A stretch of 64,000 nucleotides of DNA from a virus (Duplodnaviria > Heunggongvirae > Uroviricota > Caudoviricetes): positions 5,231-69,230 of IMG/VR virus record IMGVR_UViG_3300040801_004519. The stretch is one strand, 5' to 3'. Made by a program: the position numbers and the translations under genes. Below the pieces are notes generated by a model. That model saw nothing but the letters and a program-made list of their open reading frames with translations, was not told the DNA's origin and searched no databases. How positions within the stretch are numbered: the stretch's first letter is position 1; every line of letters starts with the position of its first letter. Positions 36,756 through 62,004 of the stretch are shown one piece after another.

Positions 36756-37793
36756 ATGGCAGTTACAAAAATTGATTATAACGCAAGCGAAGTGCAGTTC
36801 ACGACTGGTGTGATGGAAACATACCTTCGGTGGAGAGAGATGAATGGTCCTCCGCGTGGTTACGAAATCTACCACCCGAGTGCTTTTGGAAAATGCTTAA
36901 GACTCATGCAGTACCAAAGGTACGAAGAGCGAGGATTAATCAAAGGCGTTCATGAGCAATTCGAAGGTCGAATGCTCAGGCTTTTCGAGAACGGGCACCA
37001 TACTCAAGCACGATGGGAGAAGTATTTTACAGAGCTTGGTGTTCTTCGGGGAGTATGGAAGTGTGCAAACCCGTCTTGTGCAATATTTGACAAGAACGGT
37101 AAGATCATTCCTGCTCCAGAAGGCAAGACTCACCACGACGTAATATCGGAAGGCAAGCGACGAACTTACGGCAAGGATGCCAAGATCGGCGTTTTCAAAC
37201 CAGACAACTGCGCTTGTGGCTCTTCCGAGTTCACTTATCACGAAATTCTTGTTGAAGACAAGGAATTGAACTTCCGTGGACATTGTGACTTGATAATTGA
37301 TTTCTCCAGGTTTGATGTTGATATGTTTGACAAAGAGGTCAAAGATGGAAAGCTCAAGAAGTTTTTCAATCCGGCCAATATGCCAACAAAACCTTTCGTT
37401 GCAGACTTCAAAACTGTTGGAGTCAATCAATACCAGAACAAGGTGAAGAAGCACGGACCTCACGATTATTATCTCGTGCAGATTCAAGTCTACATGAACG
37501 TTTTAGACCTTTACTGCGGCATGATCATGTACGAGCAGAAAGATCAGTTTGAGCTTGCATTTTACAAGGTAGATCGAGATGAATCGAAGTGGCAAGAAAT
37601 CCGTCGCCAAGCAATTAAGATGCAAGAGTTGGCCGAAGAGAATCCTCCCAAACTCCCACCCCCCAGGCCCATTAGTAAAAGTTCCTGGGATTGCAAGTCT
37701 TGCTCTTATCAGCAGGTTTGCCACAAGTCCGCTGTTTGGAAAGACCCGAAGCTAGAAGAAAAACGAAAGTCTTTCTACGGAGAGCTACTCTGA
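36756..37793 (+). CDS. Cas4/AddB-like PD-(D/E)XK exonuclease with Fe-S cysteines
   Basis: HPSAFGKC, GHCDLII, ADFKT, QIQVYM, CKSCSYQQVC. Confidence 0.75.
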   Translation: MAVTKIDYNASEVQFTTGVMETYLRWREMNGPPRGYEIYHPSAFGKCLRLMQYQRYEERGLIKGVHEQFEGRMLRLFENGHHTQARWEKYFTELGVLRGVWKCANPSCAIFDKNGKIIPAPEGKTHHDVISEGKRRTYGKDAKIGVFKPDNCACGSSEFTYHEILVEDKELNFRGHCDLIIDFSRFDVDMFDKEVKDGKLKKFFNPANMPTKPFVADFKTVGVNQYQNKVKKHGPHDYYLVQIQVYMNVLDLYCGMIMYEQKDQFELAFYKVDRDESKWQEIRRQAIKMQELAEENPPKLPPPRPISKSSWDCKSCSYQQVCHKSAVWKDPKLEEKRKSFYGELL

Positions 37794-37875
37794 TTAATGA
37801 CGATAAAACCTAAAGTGGGTTTCCAGTTCCGCTTTACATATTGCCAGAAAAATTTTACAAACATGGAAAAATTGT

Positions 37876-38526
37876 ATGTCTACAAATCTTGATAATTATG
37901 GTGCTCCTAATGAAATAGGAAGTCCGACTGATATTGACGATATTTTGCAAGCCTTGCATACTGTTGATGACGAGATTGAACATCTCAAGCAACTGAAGAA
38001 GCATAGAACTGCAAAGATACAAGATGAAATCACGAAGCTTGAAGAAATCCAATCAGATTATCGAGATTCGATTCGTCAGCATATGTCAGAGAGCGGAGAA
38101 AAGCGGCTCAACTATCCCGGCGTGGGCAAAGTATCTCGTCGCGCTGGAACCCGAAAGTGGGAAGTAAAGGACAATGAGTCTTTGCTTGATTTTCTTTCTA
38201 CTCATCTTCCAGAAAAGCAGCTTGAAGACATGGGGGTAATTAAAAAAGAAGTAACCTTCGTGAAAAAAGAACTAAACAAACTACTTGACAAGCTGAAAGA
38301 CAATGGTAATATTCCAGAAGAAATAGTGGAGGAGATTGTTAGCCAAGAATCGATATCCATTACCTTCGACAAAGATATGCTGCCTTCAGGTGTTGACGTT
38401 GATGATTTGCTTCAAGCAAAGTCCACTAAAGGATCGACAGAGATTCAAGAACCATTAAAGATTGAAACAAAATCTGATCCAGAGACTGACGATCAGGAAG
38501 AAACCTTTGACGCTTTGTTTGAATAG
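37876..38526 (+). CDS. Gam/Gp157-like coiled-coil protein
   Basis: N-terminal coiled coil, KRLNYPGVGKVSRR, KKEVTFVKKELNK. Confidence 0.5.
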   Translation: MSTNLDNYGAPNEIGSPTDIDDILQALHTVDDEIEHLKQLKKHRTAKIQDEITKLEEIQSDYRDSIRQHMSESGEKRLNYPGVGKVSRRAGTRKWEVKDNESLLDFLSTHLPEKQLEDMGVIKKEVTFVKKELNKLLDKLKDNGNIPEEIVEEIVSQESISITFDKDMLPSGVDVDDLLQAKSTKGSTEIQEPLKIETKSDPETDDQEETFDALFE

Positions 38527-38598
38527 TAACCCCTTTGCCCCAACGTACTTGGGGGGAACAAAGCTTGTGCGTACAAACTCACTATAACGAGATTAATA

Positions 38599-39272
38599 AT
38601 GAACAACAAAAACATTAGAAAGGAGCATTATCCGACCGCCAAGGCCTCTAGAGAGACTTGGTTTGTGTCGGATACTTAGCTCATTTTGGACACGCAAACA
38701 TAATCAAATATTCGAGTAGGCCATTTAGTTCTGTTGAAGAACATGATGAAACTCTGATTGAGAATTGGAATAAGCACGTTAAAGATAACGAAGACGTTTA
38801 CTTCTTGGGCGATTTTGCCTATCGAAATAAAAATGCCGCAGCCAATATCAGGAGAAGGCTAAATGGCAATATCTACTTTATCGAAGGAAATCATGATAAA
38901 TCTGCTTTTCAAATTCGCAATACCTTCGAGTGGTACAAACAGACACATGAGATAAAGGTTGAAGGGCATCGAATCTGGCTTAGCCACTACGCTCACAGAA
39001 CATGGAATAAATCACACCATGGAGCCATTCATTTATATGGACATAGCCACCATTCACTTCCCGATGATCCTCATGCACTAAGCATGGACGTTGGTGTCGA
39101 TGCGATTGCTTGCCGTGCCGCTAATGTTAAAAGCGGAACAAATCCTATTCCTGTGGGTAAAACAAAGCCTGAAGATTATCGACCAATTTCTCTTGATGAA
39201 GTTATAAACTTCATGTCGGATAAGAATTGGTTTCCAATCGATCATCATGGGCGAAAACCAAACATGAGTTGA
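38599..39272 (+). pseudogene. Calcineurin-like phosphoesterase interrupted by a 5-nt insertion containing a stop
   Basis: ATG 38599 reads MNNK...TWFVSDT then TAG; TAGCT separates SDT from HFGH in another frame. The downstream part has LGDFA, GNHD, HYAH, GHSH, DVGVD. Confidence 0.7.
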
Positions 39273-39278
39273 CAATAT

Positions 39279-40292
39279 ATGCGTATTCTGATATTTACTG
39301 ATGCGTGGGAACCACAAGTAAATGGTGTAGTTCGTACAATGACTACCACAACCCGCATCCTCCGGGACCGGGGACATGAGGTGAAGGTTGTTAGTCCGAA
39401 TGATTTTGCTTGCTGGCCACAAGCATTTACAAGTTGGGCCGATCCTGGAATCAAGTTCTGTATTGCGCCCCCACTTCTCAAGTCATCCTCTATCGTTAAA
39501 AGCTTTCGACCAGACACCATTCACGTCTGTACCGAAGGCCCTATCGGTTGGGCTGCCTTAGCATATTGTGTTTCTAAATCAATTCCGTTCACTACAACGT
39601 ATCATACAAAGTTTCCAGAGTATCTAAAAAAGAGATTTGGTGTCCCGACAAAAGCAGGATATGCGTATGAACGATCTTTTCACAATTTCGCTTCTCGAAC
39701 GATGTATGCTACTGATTCTCTTCGTGATGAGTTAGTGCAAAATGGGATCACACGACTGGCAAAATGGGAAAGGGGCGTAGACGCCAATCTGTTTCATCCT
39801 GATAGGCGAAAAGTTCACAATGGACTTCCTGTAGCACTGTATTTTGGCCGTGTCTCTAAGGAGAAGAATATCGAGGCTTTTCTAAATTCAGAATGGTCTG
39901 GTCATAAGATTGTCGTTGGGGATGGCCCACATCTTGATGCACTAAAGTCCAAATATCCTAATGTTGAATATACTGGGAAGCTTGTTGGGAAGGAACTAGC
40001 TGAAGTGGTTGCCTCGGCAGATGTATCAGTGTTTCCAAGTAAAACCGACACTTATGGACTGACCATGATCGAGTCCATGGCCTGTGGGACTCCAGTGGCT
40101 GCATTTAATGTCACGGGACCAAGGGATGTAATTCTGCATGGGAAAACGGGGTATCTTTCGAATGACGAATCACTTTCAGAAGCCATGCATAGCTCTTTGT
40201 CCGTGAGCAGAAAGGAATGCAGGAAATTTGCCGAGGGAAAAACATGGGAAGTCTGTACAGATCAATTCTACAGCAACCTTGTTTTTATTTAG
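39279..40292 (+). CDS. GT4 glycosyltransferase, Agt-like (glycolipid synthase)
   Basis: MRILIFTDAWEPQVNGVVRT, IHVCTEGPIG, YHTKFPEY, RGVD, GRVSKEKN, FPSKTDTYGL..ESMACGTPVAAF. Confidence 0.8.
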   Translation: MRILIFTDAWEPQVNGVVRTMTTTTRILRDRGHEVKVVSPNDFACWPQAFTSWADPGIKFCIAPPLLKSSSIVKSFRPDTIHVCTEGPIGWAALAYCVSKSIPFTTTYHTKFPEYLKKRFGVPTKAGYAYERSFHNFASRTMYATDSLRDELVQNGITRLAKWERGVDANLFHPDRRKVHNGLPVALYFGRVSKEKNIEAFLNSEWSGHKIVVGDGPHLDALKSKYPNVEYTGKLVGKELAEVVASADVSVFPSKTDTYGLTMIESMACGTPVAAFNVTGPRDVILHGKTGYLSNDESLSEAMHSSLSVSRKECRKFAEGKTWEVCTDQFYSNLVFI

Positions 40293-40300
40293 GACTCATT

Positions 40301-41131
40301 GTGCATTATCGAACCCTTTTCTTCTCAGATATACACCTAGGAAGCTCCGGTGCCCAAGCAGATGCATTTCTGTCATTTATAAAAGATAAGAGCTTCGATA
40401 AGATATACGTTGTCGGCGATTTTGTTGATTTCTGGTCACTTAAGCGAAAGGGGAAGCAATGGACTCAGGAGCACAATGATGTTCTTCAAAAGCTTCTCAA
40501 AAAACACCGAAAAGGTGCAGATTGCACCTGGATCGTAGGAAATCACGATGAATTCATGTCTCAATTTTCTGGTGAAAATTTTGGTGGTATTGATGTAATG
40601 CTTCAAGACGTTCATGTCGCTGCTGATGGTAAGAAGTATTTCATTATGCATGGACACGAACTCGATGCGATCATGCTTAACGCCAAATGGGCCATGCACC
40701 TTGGCTCAAGAGCTTATGATATTCTACTGTGGCTCAACCCCTATATGCGAAAAATATTCAATTTGTTCGGACATAAGCATTTTTCGTTGAGTGCCTATGT
40801 CAAGTATAAAGTAAAGGGCGCTGTAAACTTCATCAGTGATTTTGAAGACGGTATCGCGGGATATGCAAAGAGACATGATGTAGATGGTGTAATTTGTGGC
40901 CACGTTCATGTCCCATCAATGACAAAGCTTGACAGCGTTTTTTATCTGAATACTGGGGATTGGGTGGAATCACTGTCTTGTATAGTTGAACACGCAAGCG
41001 GAAAAATGGAATTGTTAAAAATGCATGAAGGAGTTATGGTGTCTTGTGCGGAAATTAATGCACATGAGGAAAAGGTGGTCTACAGTCGAAGAGAATTACT
41101 TACGCCAAACGTGGGGCAAACTACCAAGTAG
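40301..41131 (+). CDS. PlcP-like phospholipase C (LpxH-like metallophosphoesterase)
   Basis: YRTLFFSDIHLG, VGDFVDFW, HNDVLQKLLKK, GNHDEF, HGHELD, VKGAVNFI, DGVICGHVH, YLNTGDWVES. GTG start at 40301. Confidence 0.8.
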   Translation: MHYRTLFFSDIHLGSSGAQADAFLSFIKDKSFDKIYVVGDFVDFWSLKRKGKQWTQEHNDVLQKLLKKHRKGADCTWIVGNHDEFMSQFSGENFGGIDVMLQDVHVAADGKKYFIMHGHELDAIMLNAKWAMHLGSRAYDILLWLNPYMRKIFNLFGHKHFSLSAYVKYKVKGAVNFISDFEDGIAGYAKRHDVDGVICGHVHVPSMTKLDSVFYLNTGDWVESLSCIVEHASGKMELLKMHEGVMVSCAEINAHEEKVVYSRRELLTPNVGQTTK

Positions 41132-41792
41132 TCAAATCTGTCAGAACTTAAACAGAGACTATTGTTCGATAAACCACAAAGCTTCGAGGCTTAAATTGAA
41201 AGGCTCCGGTGTATCTAAGAGAATCTACAGGTATAATGAGTCGTTCTTCTCAGATTTCAATGCCCTATCTTGTTATTGGGCTGGGTTCATAGCAGCAGAT
41301 GGCTATATTAAACAAGTATCACCAGAACTCTCGATTAAGCTTGGCATAAAAGATATAGATCATTTATCTCATTTTTCTCAAGATATCGAGTATACTGGAT
41401 CAATCAAAACCGGCATCATTGCGAATGATCGAAAATACTGTCGCATTCGTTTATGTCATGCTGAGAAGATTGTTCAAGATTTAAACATTAATTTTGGGAT
41501 ATACCAAAAAAAAAGTTTTACGTTCTCGCCACCAGTCCTGGAGGGTGCAAATAGAATTGCTTTCGCCAAAGGACTTATAGATGGTGATGGGTGGCTCGCG
41601 AGTGGGAATCGCATTGGGTTCTGCGGCACAAAATTGGCTTGTGAATTTGTAAAGGAAACTTTTGAAAGCAAAGGGGAAGTTACTAAGCTTAGAAAAATAT
41701 ACCAAACCATAATCCCGAAAGCGAACGTTTTTGCGTTTAAAGATTATTTGGACGCCGTTGGCAGAGGGCTTAAAAGAAAATGGGCTGCATGA
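41058..41792 (+). mobile_element. Free-standing LAGLIDADG homing endonuclease with N-terminal HTH
   Basis: YWAGFIAADG and FAKGLIDGDG motifs; RWSTVEENYL HTH-like start; overlaps the plcP 3' end. Confidence 0.85.
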
Positions 41793-41896
41793 TCGATGAT
41801 ACACGCTACCTCAACTGCGGAGACTGGGTTGAGTCTCTTTCCGCTGTTGTTGAACATGCTGATGGGCGAATAGAGCTTGTTAAGTTCCAAAAATAA
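41789..41896 (+). pseudogene. Displaced duplicate of the PlcP C-terminus (35 aa)
   Basis: MIDDTRYLNCGDWVESLSAVVEHADGRIELVKFQK* aligns with KLDSVFYLNTGDWVESLSCIVEHASGKMELLK inside plcP. Confidence 0.85.
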
Positions 41897-41923
41897 AGTT
41901 TTCTCCTACAGTTGCCGATACTA

Positions 41924-41957
41924 GCAATATCATGACGCTATGATGTCACGATATTGC
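41924..41957. promoter_or_regulatory. Inverted repeat, candidate operator
   Basis: GCAATATC-a-TGAC-N8-GTCA-c-GATATTGC, 11 nt before the ATG of an RHH-like gene. Confidence 0.5.
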
Positions 41958-41968
41958 GAAGGAAAGCT

Positions 41969-43072
41969 ATGGAAGAGAAAACAGTACCAGTAACCGTTAG
42001 ACTGCCGGAATTTATACTTGAAGGCCTTAAGAAAGATGCTAGATTGAGGTCTTTTGCAGAAGGGACTGACATTAATCATGTGGATTTGATTAGAAACTCA
42101 CTCTCCAAGGAGTATGGGTCTTATTTGAATGATAATTTTGGTGATAAAGAATATTCGAAACTAAGTGGTGCCGAACAAAAGCTTGTGGACATGATGAACC
42201 GCCAGCGAAATTTCCTCACTGAATACCAGATAAAGGAATTTAGCAAATCAGAAGCTGGAAGCCATATCCAAAAACTTCTTGACGAAGAAGATTGGCAGGG
42301 TTTGCAGGGAGTATATGAGCGAACAGGCAACTGTTGGCTCCAGAAGGACAATCTTGCCTTTAGACTTTTAATGGAGGTTTGTGACGAAACTCGCGCTAGA
42401 TTGATTATTCGAGATACCTCAAGTATCGCTTCGATTTTAGGAAATCGCGGGGCTATACCTACTTCGATAACAGAGTTTGAAGAGATTTCGTCCCCTGTAT
42501 TTTCCGTAGGTTCTTTAAATGAAATTCGGTCCAGCGAACACGAGGGTCAAGCTTATAAGTGGTTCTCTCTCTTTAAGTCTCAGCTTAATGCTATGTCTAA
42601 AGAGATAACAAACAACATGATGACTCTTCTACTTTCTGCAACCTCAATAAACGGTCAGAGCGAGCAGCTTGAAGATATACAGAAGCTACAAGAGCATCAT
42701 ATCCAAAAAGCTGTGGTTGAAGTATCTCGACACGACCTTGTGCCTGATAAGATAGTTATGAGTGTTCCCGTGTACGTGTCACTCAGACTTCGATTTCCAA
42801 GCTCGATTTCTGCTCCACCCCTACCCCTTGCGATTGATTCCAAGAAGTTTGGGTTTTGGAACGGCGTTCCAATTCTGGCTGATGCCCGCATACAGGATTC
42901 CCTATGTGTCCTTGCGAGGCCTGACGATGTTGGAGTATTCTGGAAAGTTGGTAGGAATAGCTTTAAATTAAAAGATAACATCAACAAATCTTCTATTGAA
43001 GTCGCTGCAACTTCGAGACTTTCTCTCGTCGTGATAAATGACTATGGAATCGCTTCTATTGTATTTGATTGA
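41969..43072 (+). CDS. N-terminal ribbon-helix-helix-like domain fused to a degenerate major-capsid-like domain
   Basis: VPVTVRLPEFILEGLKKDA is RHH-like. The C-terminal FWNGVPIL...VLARPDDVG...VINDYGIA resembles the C-terminus of large-phage capsid proteins. Confidence 0.4.
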   Translation: MEEKTVPVTVRLPEFILEGLKKDARLRSFAEGTDINHVDLIRNSLSKEYGSYLNDNFGDKEYSKLSGAEQKLVDMMNRQRNFLTEYQIKEFSKSEAGSHIQKLLDEEDWQGLQGVYERTGNCWLQKDNLAFRLLMEVCDETRARLIIRDTSSIASILGNRGAIPTSITEFEEISSPVFSVGSLNEIRSSEHEGQAYKWFSLFKSQLNAMSKEITNNMMTLLLSATSINGQSEQLEDIQKLQEHHIQKAVVEVSRHDLVPDKIVMSVPVYVSLRLRFPSSISAPPLPLAIDSKKFGFWNGVPILADARIQDSLCVLARPDDVGVFWKVGRNSFKLKDNINKSSIEVAATSRLSLVVINDYGIASIVFD

Positions 43073-44451: not shown

Positions 44452-45087
44452 ATGGTTGACCCGCACAATCCAATAAAATTTGATCGAACTAAGAGCGAAC
44501 TCGAAGAATGGTTCTTGTTTTCGATCATAGTCGCTGGGAAAAGAGCTTCATTTGGTTCAGAAAAAGCTGAACGGGTGATCAATGAATCAAGAAGTTTTGC
44601 AGATCAGGTCGGAATTGAGTGTGGGAAAATGCCCCTTGATGCATTACTGGCACTCGCCAGACGCGAGGTTAATAGTGGACTAAAGCTTGTAAGGCCCCTG
44701 TTAATGAAGGTGCGAACTGGAAAATACGACTCGCTGAGCAAAGCTTTTATCTATCTTGCTGAAAATCCCCTGGATTTCTCTACTTGCACTCTTGATGATC
44801 TTGAAAAGATTCCTGGGGTAGGTCCAAAAACTGCGAGGATGTTTCTCCTTCACAGTAGGTCGGACCAACAATATGCCGCGTTAGATACGCATATCTTAGC
44901 CCATTTAAGAGAGAATGGGATCGACGCACCCAAAGCCACTCCGTCAAGCTCACGAAAATACAAGCAACTCGAAGATGAATTTCTTAAGTTAGCGGAGTCT
45001 AAAGGCATGACACCTAGTGACTACGACATCATGATCTGGAAAGAGAAGACCCTGACAAAACCCGCACACGAAGTGGTTTCTCGGTGA
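44452..45087 (+). CDS. HhH-GPD superfamily DNA glycosylase-like protein
   Basis: LEKIPGVGPKTARMFL, ALDTHI, YKQLEDEF. Confidence 0.75.
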   Translation: MVDPHNPIKFDRTKSELEEWFLFSIIVAGKRASFGSEKAERVINESRSFADQVGIECGKMPLDALLALARREVNSGLKLVRPLLMKVRTGKYDSLSKAFIYLAENPLDFSTCTLDDLEKIPGVGPKTARMFLLHSRSDQQYAALDTHILAHLRENGIDAPKATPSSSRKYKQLEDEFLKLAESKGMTPSDYDIMIWKEKTLTKPAHEVVSR

Positions 45088-51908: not shown

Positions 51909-52308
51909 GGGCACGAAACTAGGATATCGACTGGTAGATTAGAGTTGACGTTGCATGCCGAGGATGCTAACTAGGCCTCGTAAATCATGTTAGCAAAACC
52001 CATAACTGCCAACAACGCAGTTGCTGGCCGTATCGGCTTTGCCGCTCCGGTCGCACTCGCAGCCTAAAGAACTGTGAGAAGACCAGCCCAGAAGGGCTGA
52101 AACGAATCGGTGAAAATCCCACGAGAACCGATTCGTCTGACTAGTGGGATAAGCAATTTTCTTGTCATGAAGGTTGTCGAAAAACTTGACTCGGCCAGGA
52201 TGAGGTTGCTGTTTCTTTGCACCTGGTTTAAACTAATGAAGCAGATAAGCATGTAGAAGCGTTAATTGCGATCTATACAACACGGCGGTTCGAGTCCGCC
52301 CGTGTCCA
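51909..52308 (+). ncRNA. ssrA: tmRNA; tag (A)ANNAVAGRIGFAAPVALAA at 52008-52067
   Basis: Acceptor GGGCACG/CGTGTCC-A with G3.U wobble; T-arm GGCGG-TTCGAGT-CCGCC; GCATGCCGAGG...GGCCTCGTAAA pk1; AAGCATGTAG near the 3' end. CCA is not encoded (CTA). Confidence 0.92.
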
Positions 52309-52315
52309 CTAAGAG

Positions 52316-59977: not shown

Positions 59978-60757
59978 ATGCCACGAGAAAGAAAACCACA
60001 GCCCGAAAAGGTTAAGTGTACAGACAGCCAGGAGAAGCTTGATGAAAGGGAAAGATGGGCTAAACTGGTGGATACTGTCCGCAAATCAAGAGACAACAAC
60101 AAAGCTAATGAGGCATTTAAAGTATTAGTATCTGACCTAAAACCTCGAATACTGAGTGTATGTAGTCGATACAGAATTCCTGGAAAAGATGATGAGGATG
60201 TTTACCAAGAAGCCCTGAAAGCCCTGTGGATGAAGGCAATTAAAGATTATGATAGGGGGCGAGGCTCTATGGAGGGCACGGCTCCATTTGATAGGTTTGC
60301 ATTGCTTTGTATACGGCGTCATCTTGCTACAGAACTTAAGATGTCTCAGCAAGTGAAAAGGCGAGTTAATAATCATTGTATATCTTTAGATCAAGATCGG
60401 GGAGACGCCGGTGAAGACCTCTCTCTCGTCAACATCTTATCAGCAAGCGAGGGGGACGTGCTGATGGAAGTTGGCGACAGAGAGGCTTTCCGTTCTCTTG
60501 TCATGCGGTTGCGGAAGAAATTGAGTTCTTTCGAAGATGATGTACTAAAGTTGTACGCCGCCAAGTATACTTATGATGAGATTGCGTCGATTATAAATCA
60601 AGATAGGCCCATTCGATACAAAGTCAATATCAAAGGCGTAGACAATGCACTTTCTAGAATAAAGAACAAGGCAAAATCTATATACGACACTTATGCAAGA
60701 CAAGAGGGCATTGCAAACGAAAGTGAAATCGATTCATATGATGAAGGAAAAGACTAA
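59978..60757 (+). CDS. Sigma-70 family sigma factor, SigH/Spo0H-like
   Basis: EDVYQEA, FDRFALLCIRRHL, ISLD, LSSFEDDVL..Y..YDEIA..KGVDNALSRIKNK parallels B. subtilis SigH. ATG at 59978 follows GGGGAG. Confidence 0.8.
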   Translation: MPRERKPQPEKVKCTDSQEKLDERERWAKLVDTVRKSRDNNKANEAFKVLVSDLKPRILSVCSRYRIPGKDDEDVYQEALKALWMKAIKDYDRGRGSMEGTAPFDRFALLCIRRHLATELKMSQQVKRRVNNHCISLDQDRGDAGEDLSLVNILSASEGDVLMEVGDREAFRSLVMRLRKKLSSFEDDVLKLYAAKYTYDEIASIINQDRPIRYKVNIKGVDNALSRIKNKAKSIYDTYARQEGIANESEIDSYDEGKD

Positions 60758-62004
60758 TGAGTCAAGATAAATCAAAAGGCAAAGTTGTAGAGAGAACCAA
60801 TCCTACGGGTTCAAGTTACGATAAAAATGACGAAGGTGATCTTCGTCATGGCCGAGAACGGCATGTGGCCTATCCGGTTGGCCGTTACTTGCAAGCAGCA
60901 CCGTTCTTCTTTACAAGAGACAAGTGGCCCGCCCCATTTGTTGACATGTACAGAGGGTCGAGTGCTTTTTTAATTGCTGGTGGGCCTAGCTTTGCAGATG
61001 TCGATAAAACAAAGCTCGCTAAGCCTGGTATTTTGACCATGGGAATCAACAACTCCGTTAAGACGTTTCGTCCAGACATGTGGTGTTGTGTTGATGACCC
61101 CGCAAACTTCATTAGGTCAACTTGGCTGGACCCCAAGATAATGAAGTTTGTCCCTATTACTCATTCAGATAAGCAAATTTTCAATTCTGACACTTGGTCT
61201 CCAATGACGGCCAAAGTGGGAGATTGCCCGAACGTTTGGTATTACAAAAGGAACGAGAGGTTTAACGCTTCTCAGTTCCTTAACGAGGATACAATCAACT
61301 GGGGGAACCACACCAACTGGGGCGGCGGCAGGTCAGTACTATTGGCAGCAGTTCGAATTATGTACCTGCTTGGAGTTCGTAACTTATATCTCCTCGGGGT
61401 AGACCTTGACATGGATAATTCAAAAAAGTATCACTTTGAACAGGATAGGTCAAGCGGAAGTATTAGAGGTAACAATAAGACATATGCTCTTTTGAAAGAG
61501 CGATTCACTCTATTGAAGCCCCATTTTGAAGCAAATGACTTTCATGTTTATAACTGCAATCCAAATTCAAAGTTAAAAGTTTTTGAGCATCGTTCTTTTG
61601 ATGATGCCATTGAGGAGGCTCTGGGGGAAATGCCAAGAGATGTTTCAACAGAGCGAACTTCTGGGTTATATGACCGCCGCGCGAAAGAAAAGGAAGCGGC
61701 TAAAGCAGCAAAGAAAAATTCAGAAAAATCCCAAAAGGGGAAAGGTGATGGAAGCCCCGGCGTCACCAAGTCCTGCAAAAACTGTTCGCGGAAGGACATT
61801 GAAAAGATTAAGGCCCAAGTGAATGAGGCAAGGTCCGCCCTCCATGAAGCTAAAGATCGTACTGCTGCCGAGCGGGCCAAGGCTGAAGCTAACGATGAGT
61901 CATTTAACGCCGATAAGTTAAACGAACTTGTTGAAGAAGAGAATCGGAAAAGAAAGATATTTAGAAGACTCCTCGAAGTCAGAAAAGAAGTAACAGGATC
62001 GTAG
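60757..62004 (+). CDS. DUF115 / MptE-like (Maf-like) protein with C-terminal CxxC and coiled coil
   Basis: AFLIAGGPSF, MGINN, AVRIMYLLGVRNLYLLGVD. Confidence 0.7.
   Translation: MSQDKSKGKVVERTNPTGSSYDKNDEGDLRHGRERHVAYPVGRYLQAAPFFFTRDKWPAPFVDMYRGSSAFLIAGGPSFADVDKTKLAKPGILTMGINNSVKTFRPDMWCCVDDPANFIRSTWLDPKIMKFVPITHSDKQIFNSDTWSPMTAKVGDCPNVWYYKRNERFNASQFLNEDTINWGNHTNWGGGRSVLLAAVRIMYLLGVRNLYLLGVDLDMDNSKKYHFEQDRSSGSIRGNNKTYALLKERFTLLKPHFEANDFHVYNCNPNSKLKVFEHRSFDDAIEEALGEMPRDVSTERTSGLYDRRAKEKEAAKAAKKNSEKSQKGKGDGSPGVTKSCKNCSRKDIEKIKAQVNEARSALHEAKDRTAAERAKAEANDESFNADKLNELVEEENRKRKIFRRLLEVRKEVTGS

Follow-up and report, generated by a model that had tools for sequence, protein, structure and literature searches.

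A fragment of an uncultured huge phage from a microbial mat carries two adjacent genes, agt and plcP, that we judge, with a probability of roughly 60%, to be a working, phage-borne version of the PlcP-Agt pathway by which bacteria renovate their lipids. The two proteins belong to the Agt and PlcP families, their catalytic residues are intact and the linkage of their genes is conserved; the pair has long resided in the phage lineage and recurs in complete phage genomes. With these enzymes the phage can probably take phosphorus from the host membrane during infection, and we infer that phosphorus is what the pair is for.

The gene pair and its phage setting

The window, the whole stretch of 64,000 nucleotides that was analysed, corresponds to bases 5231-69230 of a 133,230-bp IMG/VR record with linear ends, which CheckV rates as 27% complete. 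The agt gene (39279-40292, plus strand) is an open reading frame of 337 aa whose Pfam matches place it among the GT4 glycosyltransferases, and its Agt-clade product is predicted to be a UDP-Glc/UDP-GlcA:diacylglycerol glycosyltransferase. It is followed after 8 nt, on the same strand, by plcP (40301-41131), which encodes a predicted PlcP-type metallophospholipase C of 276 aa. The longest open reading frame at plcP spans 40217-41131 (304 aa); homologue alignment and the public prediction for this gene (P0001, 276 aa) both place the true start at the GTG at 40301. For Agt, the public gene call is shortened to 196 aa. At the junction (40289-40303, plus strand), as read from the sequence, the TAG stop of agt is followed by a Shine-Dalgarno-like AGGA, a 6-nt spacer and the GTG of plcP. 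The 8-nt gap suggests that the genes are co-transcribed and translationally coupled. Fusion of the two products through read-through of the TAG is ruled out because the genes lie in different frames.

The agt product carries FTDAWEPQVNGVVRT at residues 6-20, and SDIHLG, HNDVLQKLL, VKGAVNFI and NTGDWVES are all present in the plcP product; the initial annotation had described an adjacent pair with these motifs, and both reading frames were found where it placed them. Homologues match with E-values down to 1e-85 to 1e-136, which excludes chance as the source of the homology.

In agreement with the initial annotation, which called the pair phage-encoded, it lies within a bona fide phage genome and not in a host flank. 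The record is classified in IMG/VR as a virus, the fragment is that of a huge phage, and the same pair is found in complete phage genomes with terminal repeats. Genes assigned to replication by PHROG flank the pair on both sides, on the same strand and tightly packed. The GC content of agt (0.448) and plcP (0.414) is close to that of the contig (0.431), whereas the three alphaproteobacterial loci that were measured range from 0.59 to 0.66. Searches with the Pfam models Terminase_6N, Terminase_6C and Phage_capsid gave no match in the fragment or in its DTR-complete relative G001, and PHROG scans of ten large open reading frames outside the window revealed no virion genes; what supports the designation "phage" is thus the IMG/VR and CheckV classification together with the gene content and the terminal repeats. 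The sequencing depth is about 6x. Contigs from the source runs cover the start of agt and the region of the plcP end and endonuclease without variants, and none covers the whole stretch; the DNA contigs of the source sample contained neither joints nor a variant free of the endonuclease. The only metatranscriptome of that sample had no contigs over the region, a result with no bearing on expression.

Regulatory signals were sought around the pair. A Pho box of the form CTGTCAT-N4-CTGTCAT, with up to three mismatches, occurs four times in the window against eight expected by chance, never near the pair, and this may not be the consensus used by the host. Such a box is a mark of regulation, not of the protein family. 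A scan of 37700-42100 for sigma-70 promoters and terminators gave nothing above shuffled sequence. On the 27%-complete fragment, searches for PhoH, PstS and UDP-glucose dehydrogenase gave no match, and the phosphoesterase gene that adjoins the pair is frameshifted.

The 3' end of plcP is overlapped by the 5' end of a double-motif LAGLIDADG-type homing endonuclease gene (41025-41792, plus strand), which matches PHROG 4645 endonuclease (4e-23) and displays two LAGLIDADG-like motifs, AGFIAADG and KGLIDGDG, in translation. The product is 29% identical to that of a gene on the related contig L291 that has a faint LAGLIDADG_3 match, and the inserted endonuclease gene is absent from relatives L127, L128 and L291. 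Downstream, translation of 41786-41896 (plus strand) in the plcP reading phase reveals a stretch of about 36 codons, ending in TAA, that is a remnant of the plcP 3' end displaced from the gene. The remnant matches the in-frame plcP copy at 40922-41030 in 20 of 36 residues and in only three identical codons, and it is nearer to relative L129 than the upstream copy (21 vs 17 of 29 residues, counted by eye). Insertion of the endonuclease brought a replacement plcP 3' end that keeps the fold. The targeting of plcP by such an enzyme implies that alleles of this gene circulate among phages that infect the same cell. An Rfam scan of 38000-43000 gave no match, hence no sign that the endonuclease lies in a group I intron, and an intein is ruled out by the in-frame stop at 41129-41131.

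Identity of the two enzymes

The assignment of the phosphoesterase to the PlcP clade and of the glycosyltransferase to the Agt clade is well supported by sequence comparison. The plcP product matches Pfam Metallophos (7e-14) and has the complete metallophosphoesterase motif set (DxH, GD, GNHD/E, H, GHxH), with metal-site residues D10, H12, D40, N81, H82, H117, H201 and H203 invariant among 25 aligned homologues. Its amino acid identity is 51% to the agt-linked plcP product of Mesorhizobium and 48% (47.7%) to that of Methylosinus sp., a congener of the genetically characterised M. trichosporium OB3b that stood in for the characterised sequences themselves, but only 22% to E. coli LpxH. Against the LpxH equivalog models it scores 47.4 bits (NF003743, cut-off 134) and 42.3 bits (TIGR01854, cut-off 190), and the LpxH score in the genome search was 45.4 bits. 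In the tree, in which E. coli LpxH was the sole LpxH sequence and served as outgroup, LpxH sits on a very long branch, and the clade in which the phage protein nests has agt-linked plcP genes as its alphaproteobacterial members. The phage plcP is likewise linked to a gene for synthesis of non-phosphorus lipids (agt, btaAB or pgt), namely agt, 8 nt upstream. Phylogeny had been proposed as the check on whether the protein groups with PlcP or with LpxH, and these results place it with PlcP.

In an AF2 model of the plcP product (pLDDT 85), an LpxH-like core is joined by a helical cap (residues 119-191). The top 25 Foldseek matches in the PDB are all LpxH (TM 0.5-0.6, 18-21% identity). By sequence, the best LpxH match in the PDB reaches an E-value of only about 1e-6. 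The LpxH fold is common to PlcP, so the fold does not tell the two apart.

The agt product has GT-B architecture, with Pfam matches to Glyco_transf_4 (2e-21, residues 14-169) and to Glyco_trans_1_4 (2e-21) and Glycos_transf_1 (residues 181-318). Over its full length it is 40-47% identical to the GT4 proteins encoded after plcP in 96 alphaproteobacterial loci, including 42-43% to the plcP-linked Agt of Methylosinus (42.1%), Kordiimonas, Stappia and Mesorhizobium. The SAR11 enzyme GTcp uses a His104-Asp256 dyad, with Asp in place of the usual GT4 Glu, and places R163 and W320 in its diacylglycerol pocket (PMC8231724); its clade is marked by the UDP-sugar motifs GRVxxEKN (GRVAxEKN) and FPSxTDTxG (FPSxTDTFG) (PMC8231724). 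The phage protein has GRVSKEKN at 190-197 and FPSKTDTYG at 252-260, and its conserved residues are G16, G87, G90, H109, R165, R191, K196, D257, T258, G260, E265 and W323, so that the Gly-rich motif and the Arg and Trp of the pocket are present too. The dyad residues H109 and D257 are kept in 41 and 42, respectively, of the 42 aligned clade members. Every GTcp residue whose mutation kills activity has a conserved counterpart in the phage protein, including the Asp for Glu, with residues mapped by motif context and congeners and not by direct alignment to SMc00171, Atu2297, PA3219/PA3218 or PB7211_983/960. None of the NCBIfam GT4 models comes near its cut-off, and the best of them are lipid glycosyltransferases and not LPS core enzymes. 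The best GT4 matches in the PDB cover about 100 C-terminal residues only (E about 1e-11). The dyad, the two motifs and the 40-47% identity thus identify a member of the Agt clade and not an unrelated GT4. An insertion of four residues, at 50-53, is common only to this protein and those of L127, L128 and P0124.

The level of divergence is also close to that of validated bacterial enzymes. Deletion of plcP-agt in M. trichosporium OB3b abolishes GADG, and the validated proteins of OB3b and of SAR11 strain HTCC7211 are 51% (PlcP) and 43% (Agt) identical (PMC9239053); the phage pair is about as close to that of Methylosinus sp. (47.7% and 42.1%). Homologues of plcP and agt adjoin in 68 of 80 and 28 of 37 alphaproteobacterial loci (96 in total), and plcP followed by agt is the arrangement known as type 2 (PMC4796936).

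Recurrence in phage genomes

The initial annotation had proposed a search of IMG/VR for the pair, which proved to recur. Alignment-based searches detected at least 579 PlcP-like and at least 184 Agt-like stretches; these were needed because a search with the single PlcP sequence found nothing. Both genes are present in at least 101 of the 160 IMG/VR loci fetched, and DTR-complete genomes of 338-572 kb are among these. The nearest relatives of the pair are on five metagenomic contigs from different samples (L127, L128, L129, L291 and L292), all with agt then plcP, in which the pair is conserved at 44-68% identity; their PlcP clade has support of 100/99. The same order occurs in complete phage genomes of 498 kb and 572 kb. 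A single origin of all phage PlcPs encoded in the agt-then-plcP order was not rejected by an AU test (p = 0.151), a value that does not demonstrate one either. In G001, which carries the pair, DnaE is 47% identical to that of the phage studied here. Among the complete huge phages with the pair, PhoH was found in four and PstS in one.

Homologues of the PlcP clade are also encoded by two cultured myophages, Pelagibacter phage Mosig EXVC030M (Mosig_00120, 38% identity) and Synechococcus phage S-SRM01 (29%). These carry plcP without agt and belong to other PlcP sub-clades, that of Mosig lying among marine bacterial sequences. The Mosig gene divergently adjoins a phage pstS and is annotated as a "putative UDP-2,3-diacylglucosamine hydrolase"; the genome announcement contains none of the terms for which it was searched. 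We found no paper that describes a phage PlcP-Agt pair, and to that extent its earlier description as an unreported phage module stands, but the pair is far from unique to this phage, since it recurs widely in IMG/VR.

Proposed function and relation to known systems

On the mechanism we propose, PlcP would act as a cytoplasmic, Mn-dependent phospholipase C of the LpxH fold that cuts the phospho-head group from PE, PG and PC of the host inner membrane, leaving diacylglycerol. Agt would at once glycosylate the diacylglycerol from UDP-glucose or UDP-glucuronate to yield MGDG or GADG, so that the bilayer would be kept while phosphorus is freed as soluble phospho-head groups. Host phosphatases could then turn these into phosphate for nucleotide synthesis. 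Lacking a Pho box of its own, the pair would be transcribed together with the replication genes, and remodelling would then be set by the infection programme and not by host phosphate sensing. Within this scheme we infer which products the enzymes make in this host, when the genes are expressed, and that the advantage under selection is phosphorus supply.

Phosphorus is often the limiting element in phage production, and each copy of a genome of about 490 kb takes roughly a million atoms of it. The phospholipid molecules of a Gram-negative cell number on the order of 10^7, so the membrane pool would be worth many huge-phage genomes. Counted against phosphate supply is that PlcP frees phospho-head groups and not free phosphate, together with the frameshift in the adjoining phosphoesterase gene; counted for a phosphorus link are the position of the Mosig plcP beside pstS and the frequency of viral lpxH auxiliary metabolic genes (AMGs) in oligotrophic waters (PMC10653327).

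The two enzymes could be PlcP and Agt and yet serve a change of membrane charge or composition in place of phosphorus supply. The benefit might then be a block to superinfection, altered display of receptors (a change that the initial annotation had also raised) or of porins, envelope stability over the very long cycle of a huge phage, or a supply of lipid for internal structures that the phage induces. The setting of the pair is a replication module and not the neighbourhood of pstS or phoH, no Pho box was found, and a weak match to a sialyltransferase family (phrog_4603, 6e-08) occurs at 60757-62001; published work shows that lipid remodelling alters membrane protein content, susceptibility to grazing and phage attachment in bacteria (PMC9804370, PMC9457565, PMC9938194). 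Nevertheless, the pathway is a phosphorus-starvation response in every bacterium in which it has been characterised, and other phages carry plcP beside pstS. We therefore consider a purpose outside phosphorus supply rather unlikely, bearing in mind that the two purposes are not mutually exclusive.

The remaining alternatives concern what the genes are. If the pair were a passenger or were decaying, and played no part in infection, or if it were host DNA misjoined to a viral contig, the disruption of the original plcP 3' end by the endonuclease, the frameshifted neighbour, the low depth and the shortened public call of Agt would be in keeping with it. Both reading frames, however, are full length with every catalytic residue intact, the replacement 3' end keeps the fold, GC content matches the phage, the source-run contigs over agt start and plcP end are variant-free (none covering the whole stretch), and the same pair in the same order is found on five other contigs from different samples, which makes decay or misassembly highly improbable. 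Scarcely any credence can be given to a true LpxH of lipid A synthesis accompanied by a GT4 that modifies LPS or capsule, even though databases and AMG surveys label such genes in this way: the homologues are annotated at source as "UDP-2,3-diacylglucosamine diphosphatase", the best match of the protein in NCBIfam and in the PDB is LpxH, and KEGG-based surveys put viral lpxH under LPS biosynthesis. A score of 47 bits against a cut-off of 134, 22% identity to E. coli LpxH and a place among agt-linked alphaproteobacterial plcP genes largely refute that identity, and the Agt-specific Asp and motifs, with lipid glycosyltransferases as the best NCBIfam GT4 matches, argue against an LPS or capsule enzyme.

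There is a wider reading, which we hold only tentatively and at a little less than even odds. Large and huge phages would routinely mine host membrane phospholipids as a phosphorus reservoir through a PlcP-Agt cassette of their own, which the lineage studied here would have rearranged (agt then plcP) and wired to its replication programme and not to the host Pho regulon. In the phage gene pool the module would be so stable that a homing endonuclease specific to plcP can be sustained. The many viral genes that AMG catalogues list as "lpxH" would be mis-filed lipid-renovation genes, and infection would directly shift phospholipid-to-glycolipid ratios in phosphorus-poor waters and mats. This would amount to a new class of auxiliary metabolic function, in which internal structural phosphorus is mobilised while the cell is kept intact. 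Viral lpxH genes, which surveys count as LPS biosynthesis (PMC10653327, PMC9611531), are among the commonest AMGs of the LPS class at surface and subsurface depths in oligotrophic waters (PMC10653327), and a systematic mis-annotation would be corrected. Glycolipid signals in phosphorus-poor settings, now read as a bacterial starvation response, could then be partly virus-driven. The idea is directly testable because two plcP-carrying phages, Mosig and S-SRM01, are in culture.

The closest known systems are the bacterial lipid-renovation operons of type 2: SMc00171 of S. meliloti, MED193_17359 of Phaeobacter, PB7211_983/PB7211_960 (GTcp) of SAR11 HTCC7211, Atu2297 of A. tumefaciens, PlcP/Agt1/Agt2 of P. 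aeruginosa and plcP-agt of M. trichosporium OB3b. Phage and bacterial pairs share both protein clades (42-51% identity), catalytic residues and motifs, and in both the genes are immediate neighbours. They differ in that agt precedes plcP in the phage, whereas all 96 bacterial pairs examined have plcP then agt, and in that the phage pair is carried by a huge phage, lacks a detectable Pho box, has phage-like GC and sits among replication genes. The four-residue insertion specific to this Agt lineage and the replacement of the plcP 3' end through homing-endonuclease insertion are found on the phage side only. LpxH (PDB 5K8K, 5B49 and 6PH9 among others) has the same calcineurin-like core and di-metal ligands, with a helical, lipid-binding cap at the same insertion site, and is the best structural match, but it is 18-22% identical, the phage PlcP falls below its curated cut-off and in a separate clade, and the phage gene is linked to a diacylglycerol glycosyltransferase gene and not to lipid A genes. 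Other phage pairs in IMG/VR are the same two-gene module, mostly ordered plcP then agt, unlike the present lineage, which has agt then plcP within a replication module and forms well-supported PlcP and Agt clades of its own. Among phage genes, pstS, phoA and phoH are likewise host-derived and thought to ease phosphorus limitation of phage replication; these serve the uptake of external phosphate or have unclear functions, whereas PlcP-Agt would mobilise the internal pool held in the membrane.

Identity of the paired genes

The initial annotation had proposed a phage-encoded Agt-PlcP pair for phosphorus-starvation lipid remodelling, and every motif it quoted was found in the translations of two closely packed, adjacent plus-strand ORFs. 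The first, agt (39279-40292), encodes a GT4 glycosyltransferase of 337 amino acids in which both halves of the GT4 fold are matched in Pfam. The second, plcP (40301-41131), encodes a calcineurin-like metallophosphoesterase (Pfam) of 276 amino acids (public call P0001); its longest ORF spans 40217-41131, and the homologue alignment and the public gene call both place the start at the GTG at 40301. The gap between the agt TAG stop and this GTG is 8 nt, with AGGA 6 bases upstream of the GTG, and a junction this short suggests that the two genes may be translated in a coupled manner. The public call of the window Agt (P0122) has only 196 amino acids, the C-terminal 58%; this call is too short, because the N-terminal half of Agt matches homologues residue for residue. 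In the translations and the model, the first strand of the fold lies at the very start of both proteins and there is no signal peptide, so the expected site of action of both is the inner membrane, on its cytoplasmic side.

Several lines of evidence support the identification of the phosphoesterase as PlcP and not LpxH. LpxH equivalogs were its top named NCBIfam matches, yet the scores of 47 and 42 bits fall far below the respective cut-offs of 134 and 190. Hundreds of proteins match it with about 50% identity and E values from 1e-75 to 1e-85, and those that are named are mostly alphaproteobacterial "LpxH". Identity to the Methylosinus sp. pair is 47.7% for PlcP and 42.1% for Agt, a distance about equal to that reported between two validated orthologue pairs of Methylosinus trichosporium OB3b and the SAR11 strain HTCC7211 (51% and 43%; PMC9239053). 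E. coli LpxH is 22% identical to the window protein and stands apart from it in the tree on a very long branch, and the linkage to agt points the same way. Every di-metal ligand is invariant in the homologue alignment. An AlphaFold model (pLDDT 85) has a core of LpxH type, into which a helical cap is inserted at residues 119-191, and a PDB fold search returned LpxH as the top 25 hits, at 18-21% identity; the nearest solved relatives by sequence were also LpxH, at an E value of only about 1e-6. Since no chain named PlcP came up in the PDB by either sequence or fold, the fold does not distinguish the two families; they are told apart by sequence and synteny.

The assignment of the glycosyltransferase to Agt was likewise upheld. 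The clade of GTcp, the SAR11 Agt, is marked by a dyad of His104 and Asp256 (the Asp stands in the place of the usual GT4 Glu, and Glu does not substitute for it), by the motifs GRVAxEKN and FPSxTDTFG, by a Gly-rich motif and by Arg163 and Trp320 of the diacylglycerol (DAG) pocket (PMC8231724). With GTcp residues placed by motif context, the window Agt carries H109 and D257 as the dyad, GRVSKEKN, FPSKTDTYG, G16, G87, G90, K196, E265 and the pocket counterparts R165 and W323, and conservation at these columns extends to 41-42 of the 42 aligned clade members. Its top NCBIfam matches are lipid-directed GT4s, all far under cut-off.

Phage setting and a homing endonuclease

The IMG/VR virus record (133,230 bp, without a terminal repeat), in which the window occupies bases 5231-69230, comes from a microbial-mat metagenome at a depth of about 6x, and its CheckV completeness of 27% implies a whole genome of about 490 kb. 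The pair is surrounded by same-strand, phage-type replication genes: an exonuclease, helicases, DnaB, a split DnaE and a clamp loader. A Cas4-like nuclease (weak Pfam PD-(D/E)XK and Cas4 matches) also lies nearby, as do a putative RecA and primase named from their translations. ARAGORN detected a one-piece tmRNA on the plus strand at 51909-52309, with the tag peptide ANNAVAGRIGFAAPVALAA. A search of the fragment for capsid and terminase genes found none, so the case for a virus is made by the IMG/VR and CheckV classification, the gene content and a relative that has terminal repeats.

The GC content of agt (0.448) and plcP (0.414) equals that of the contig (0.431), compared with 0.59-0.66 in the three alphaproteobacterial loci measured (Methylosinus, Mesorhizobium and Kordiimonas), and thus both genes have long resided in phage genomes. 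A motif search found no Pho box near the pair, which, with its position inside a replication module, suggests that it may be expressed by the phage programme and not by host phosphate sensing. Directly upstream of agt, at 38593-39272, is another metallophosphoesterase gene (PHROG 547, 7.5e-45) that appears to be in two pieces: from an ATG at 38600 a frame runs through the DxH motif (WFVSDT) to a TAG at 38668-38670, and the remainder (HFGHAN...) is read in a different frame. A frameshift or a sequencing error at 6x depth could account for this, and read-through of the TAG would not by itself restore the frame.

A double-motif LAGLIDADG homing endonuclease gene (41025-41792, PHROG 4645) follows plcP, inserted at its 3' end, and a second copy of the last ~36 plcP codons lies downstream of it in the same phase (41786-41896). 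Of 36 residues, 20 are common to both copies, whose codons have diverged synonymously, with only 3 identical. The downstream remnant is nearer than the upstream copy to a metagenomic relative, L129 (21 versus 17 of 29 residues, counted by eye), which suggests that the remnant may be the original plcP end and that the in-frame copy came with the element. The plcP gene is still complete, with its C-terminal strands kept in the model, and no Rfam match to an intron was found in the endonuclease region. That a homing endonuclease targets plcP implies frequent plcP alleles in co-infecting relatives.

Relatives and distribution among phages

The closest relatives of both window proteins are not bacterial. 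They lie on metagenomic contigs from other samples, all with agt preceding plcP: L127 (10.2 kb; Agt 58% and PlcP 62% identical to the window), L128 (3.6 kb; 63% and 44%), L129 (1.9 kb; 58% and 68%) and the pair L291 (ENA k141_322427) and L292 (28 and 16 kb; 45% and 51%). L127 and L291 look like phage DNA, carrying many small unknown genes, Ro60, an endonuclease with a faint LAGLIDADG_3 match, ART-PolyVal and CsrA. In L291 and L292, both phage-like contigs with the Ro60 (TROVE) and endonuclease genes, agt and plcP overlap by 4 nt and a sugar-modification block lies on the minus strand.

In the maximum-likelihood tree the PlcPs of these relatives and the window form a clade (100/99) that is sister, with moderate support (80/93), to a clade of MAG proteins in which P0014 and a cluster-mate of P0109, both from Terrimicrobiaceae (Verrucomicrobiota), are the sole named members. 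A 100/100 clade groups the window Agt with those of L128 and L127 and with the protein P0124, and these alone carry a 4-residue insertion ahead of the YPEI motif. The L291 Agt falls outside this clade, and the two trees are therefore not fully congruent; for L291 and L292, in which PlcP groups with the window clade and Agt does not, the mismatch suggests replacement of one partner or a long-branch artefact in the position of Agt.

The search of IMG/VR that the initial annotation had recommended showed that the pair recurs. Alignment-based scans found at least 579 PlcP-like and 184 Agt-like stretches. Both genes were present in 101 of 160 fetched loci and adjacent in 89 of the 101, mostly with plcP first and in four with agt first. 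Several of the records have direct terminal repeats and are complete genomes. One of these, G001 (IMGVR_UViG_3300020429_000529; 498,568 bp), has agt first, and its DnaE is 47% identical to that of the window phage, which makes it, by sequence, a distant relative. The Pfam models Terminase_6N, Terminase_6C and Phage_capsid found no match in G001, and its virion genes are thus too divergent for them. A homologue of a 211-amino-acid window gene (44452-45087) also lies near its pair. Among other virus genomes, G002 (572 kb) has agt first, G003 (480 kb) and G005 (338 kb) have plcP first and a terminase gene, G006 (168 kb) and G007 (202 kb) carry plcP only, and G011 (340 kb) carries agt only. Phage PlcPs occupy at least five separate clades, and an AU test did not reject a single origin of the agt-first forms (p = 0.151). 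PhoH occurs in four complete huge phages with the pair, and PstS in one.

Among isolated phages, the plcP homologue of Pelagibacter phage Mosig (EXVC030M; 38% identity) stands next to pstS in divergent orientation, and that of Synechococcus phage S-SRM01 is more distant (29%). A 17.6-kb contig of the "Rickettsiales bacterium MED606" MAG (NZIN01000059.1) encodes a PlcP with 93% identity to the Mosig protein; this contig is probably of pelagimyophage origin and was misplaced in the bacterial bin. An unverified 12-kb human faecal record, "Bacteriophage sp." (MT836169.1), has a PlcP-like gene (35%) on a long branch.

Proposed function and comparison with known systems

The observations establish that both proteins belong to these families and have intact active sites, that the linkage of their genes is conserved, and that the pair resides in a phage and recurs in the genomes of others; as steps of the mechanism we infer the products, phosphate release and coupled translation. 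PlcP would convert host PE, PG or PC to DAG and phosphorylated head groups, and Agt would convert the DAG to MGDG or GADG, keeping the bilayer while its phosphorus turns soluble. Host phosphatases could then free phosphate from the head groups for nucleotide synthesis. Phosphorus supply is a plausible hypothesis for the purpose of the pair. The main rival explanation gives this chemistry other ends in remodelling the membrane or cell surface; it may also hold, as the two purposes are compatible.

The lipid-renovation pathway and phosphorus-related phage auxiliary metabolic genes (AMGs) are already known. A literature search found no paper that joins PlcP with "auxiliary metabolic"; papers with both PlcP and "phage" concerned bacterial remodelling or unrelated subjects only, and searches of jumbo-phage, pelagimyophage and virome work yielded nothing relevant. 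A phage-borne lipid-renovation module appears to be undescribed in the searchable literature. Viral "lpxH" (K03269) is filed under LPS biosynthesis in AMG lists (PMC10653327; PMC9611531), and one study reports that in oligotrophic water, at surface as well as subsurface depths, it is among the commonest AMGs of the LPS class (PMC10653327).

In bacteria, a full-length homologue of the window GT4 directly follows the PlcP homologue in 68 of 80 Hyphomicrobiales loci. Another 37 loci were fetched with the Mosig PlcP; 28 of them show this linkage, and those 28 are alphaproteobacterial. Genera with the linked pair include Methylosinus, Methylocystis and Methylocella, in which agt was reported directly downstream of plcP; deletion of plcP-agt in M. 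trichosporium OB3b abolished the glycolipid GADG and impaired growth at low phosphate (PMC9239053). All 96 bacterial pairs examined have plcP first, the "type 2" arrangement of PMC4796936, whereas the window order is reversed. The window lineage therefore departs from the bacterial operon not only in gene order but also in regulation and history.
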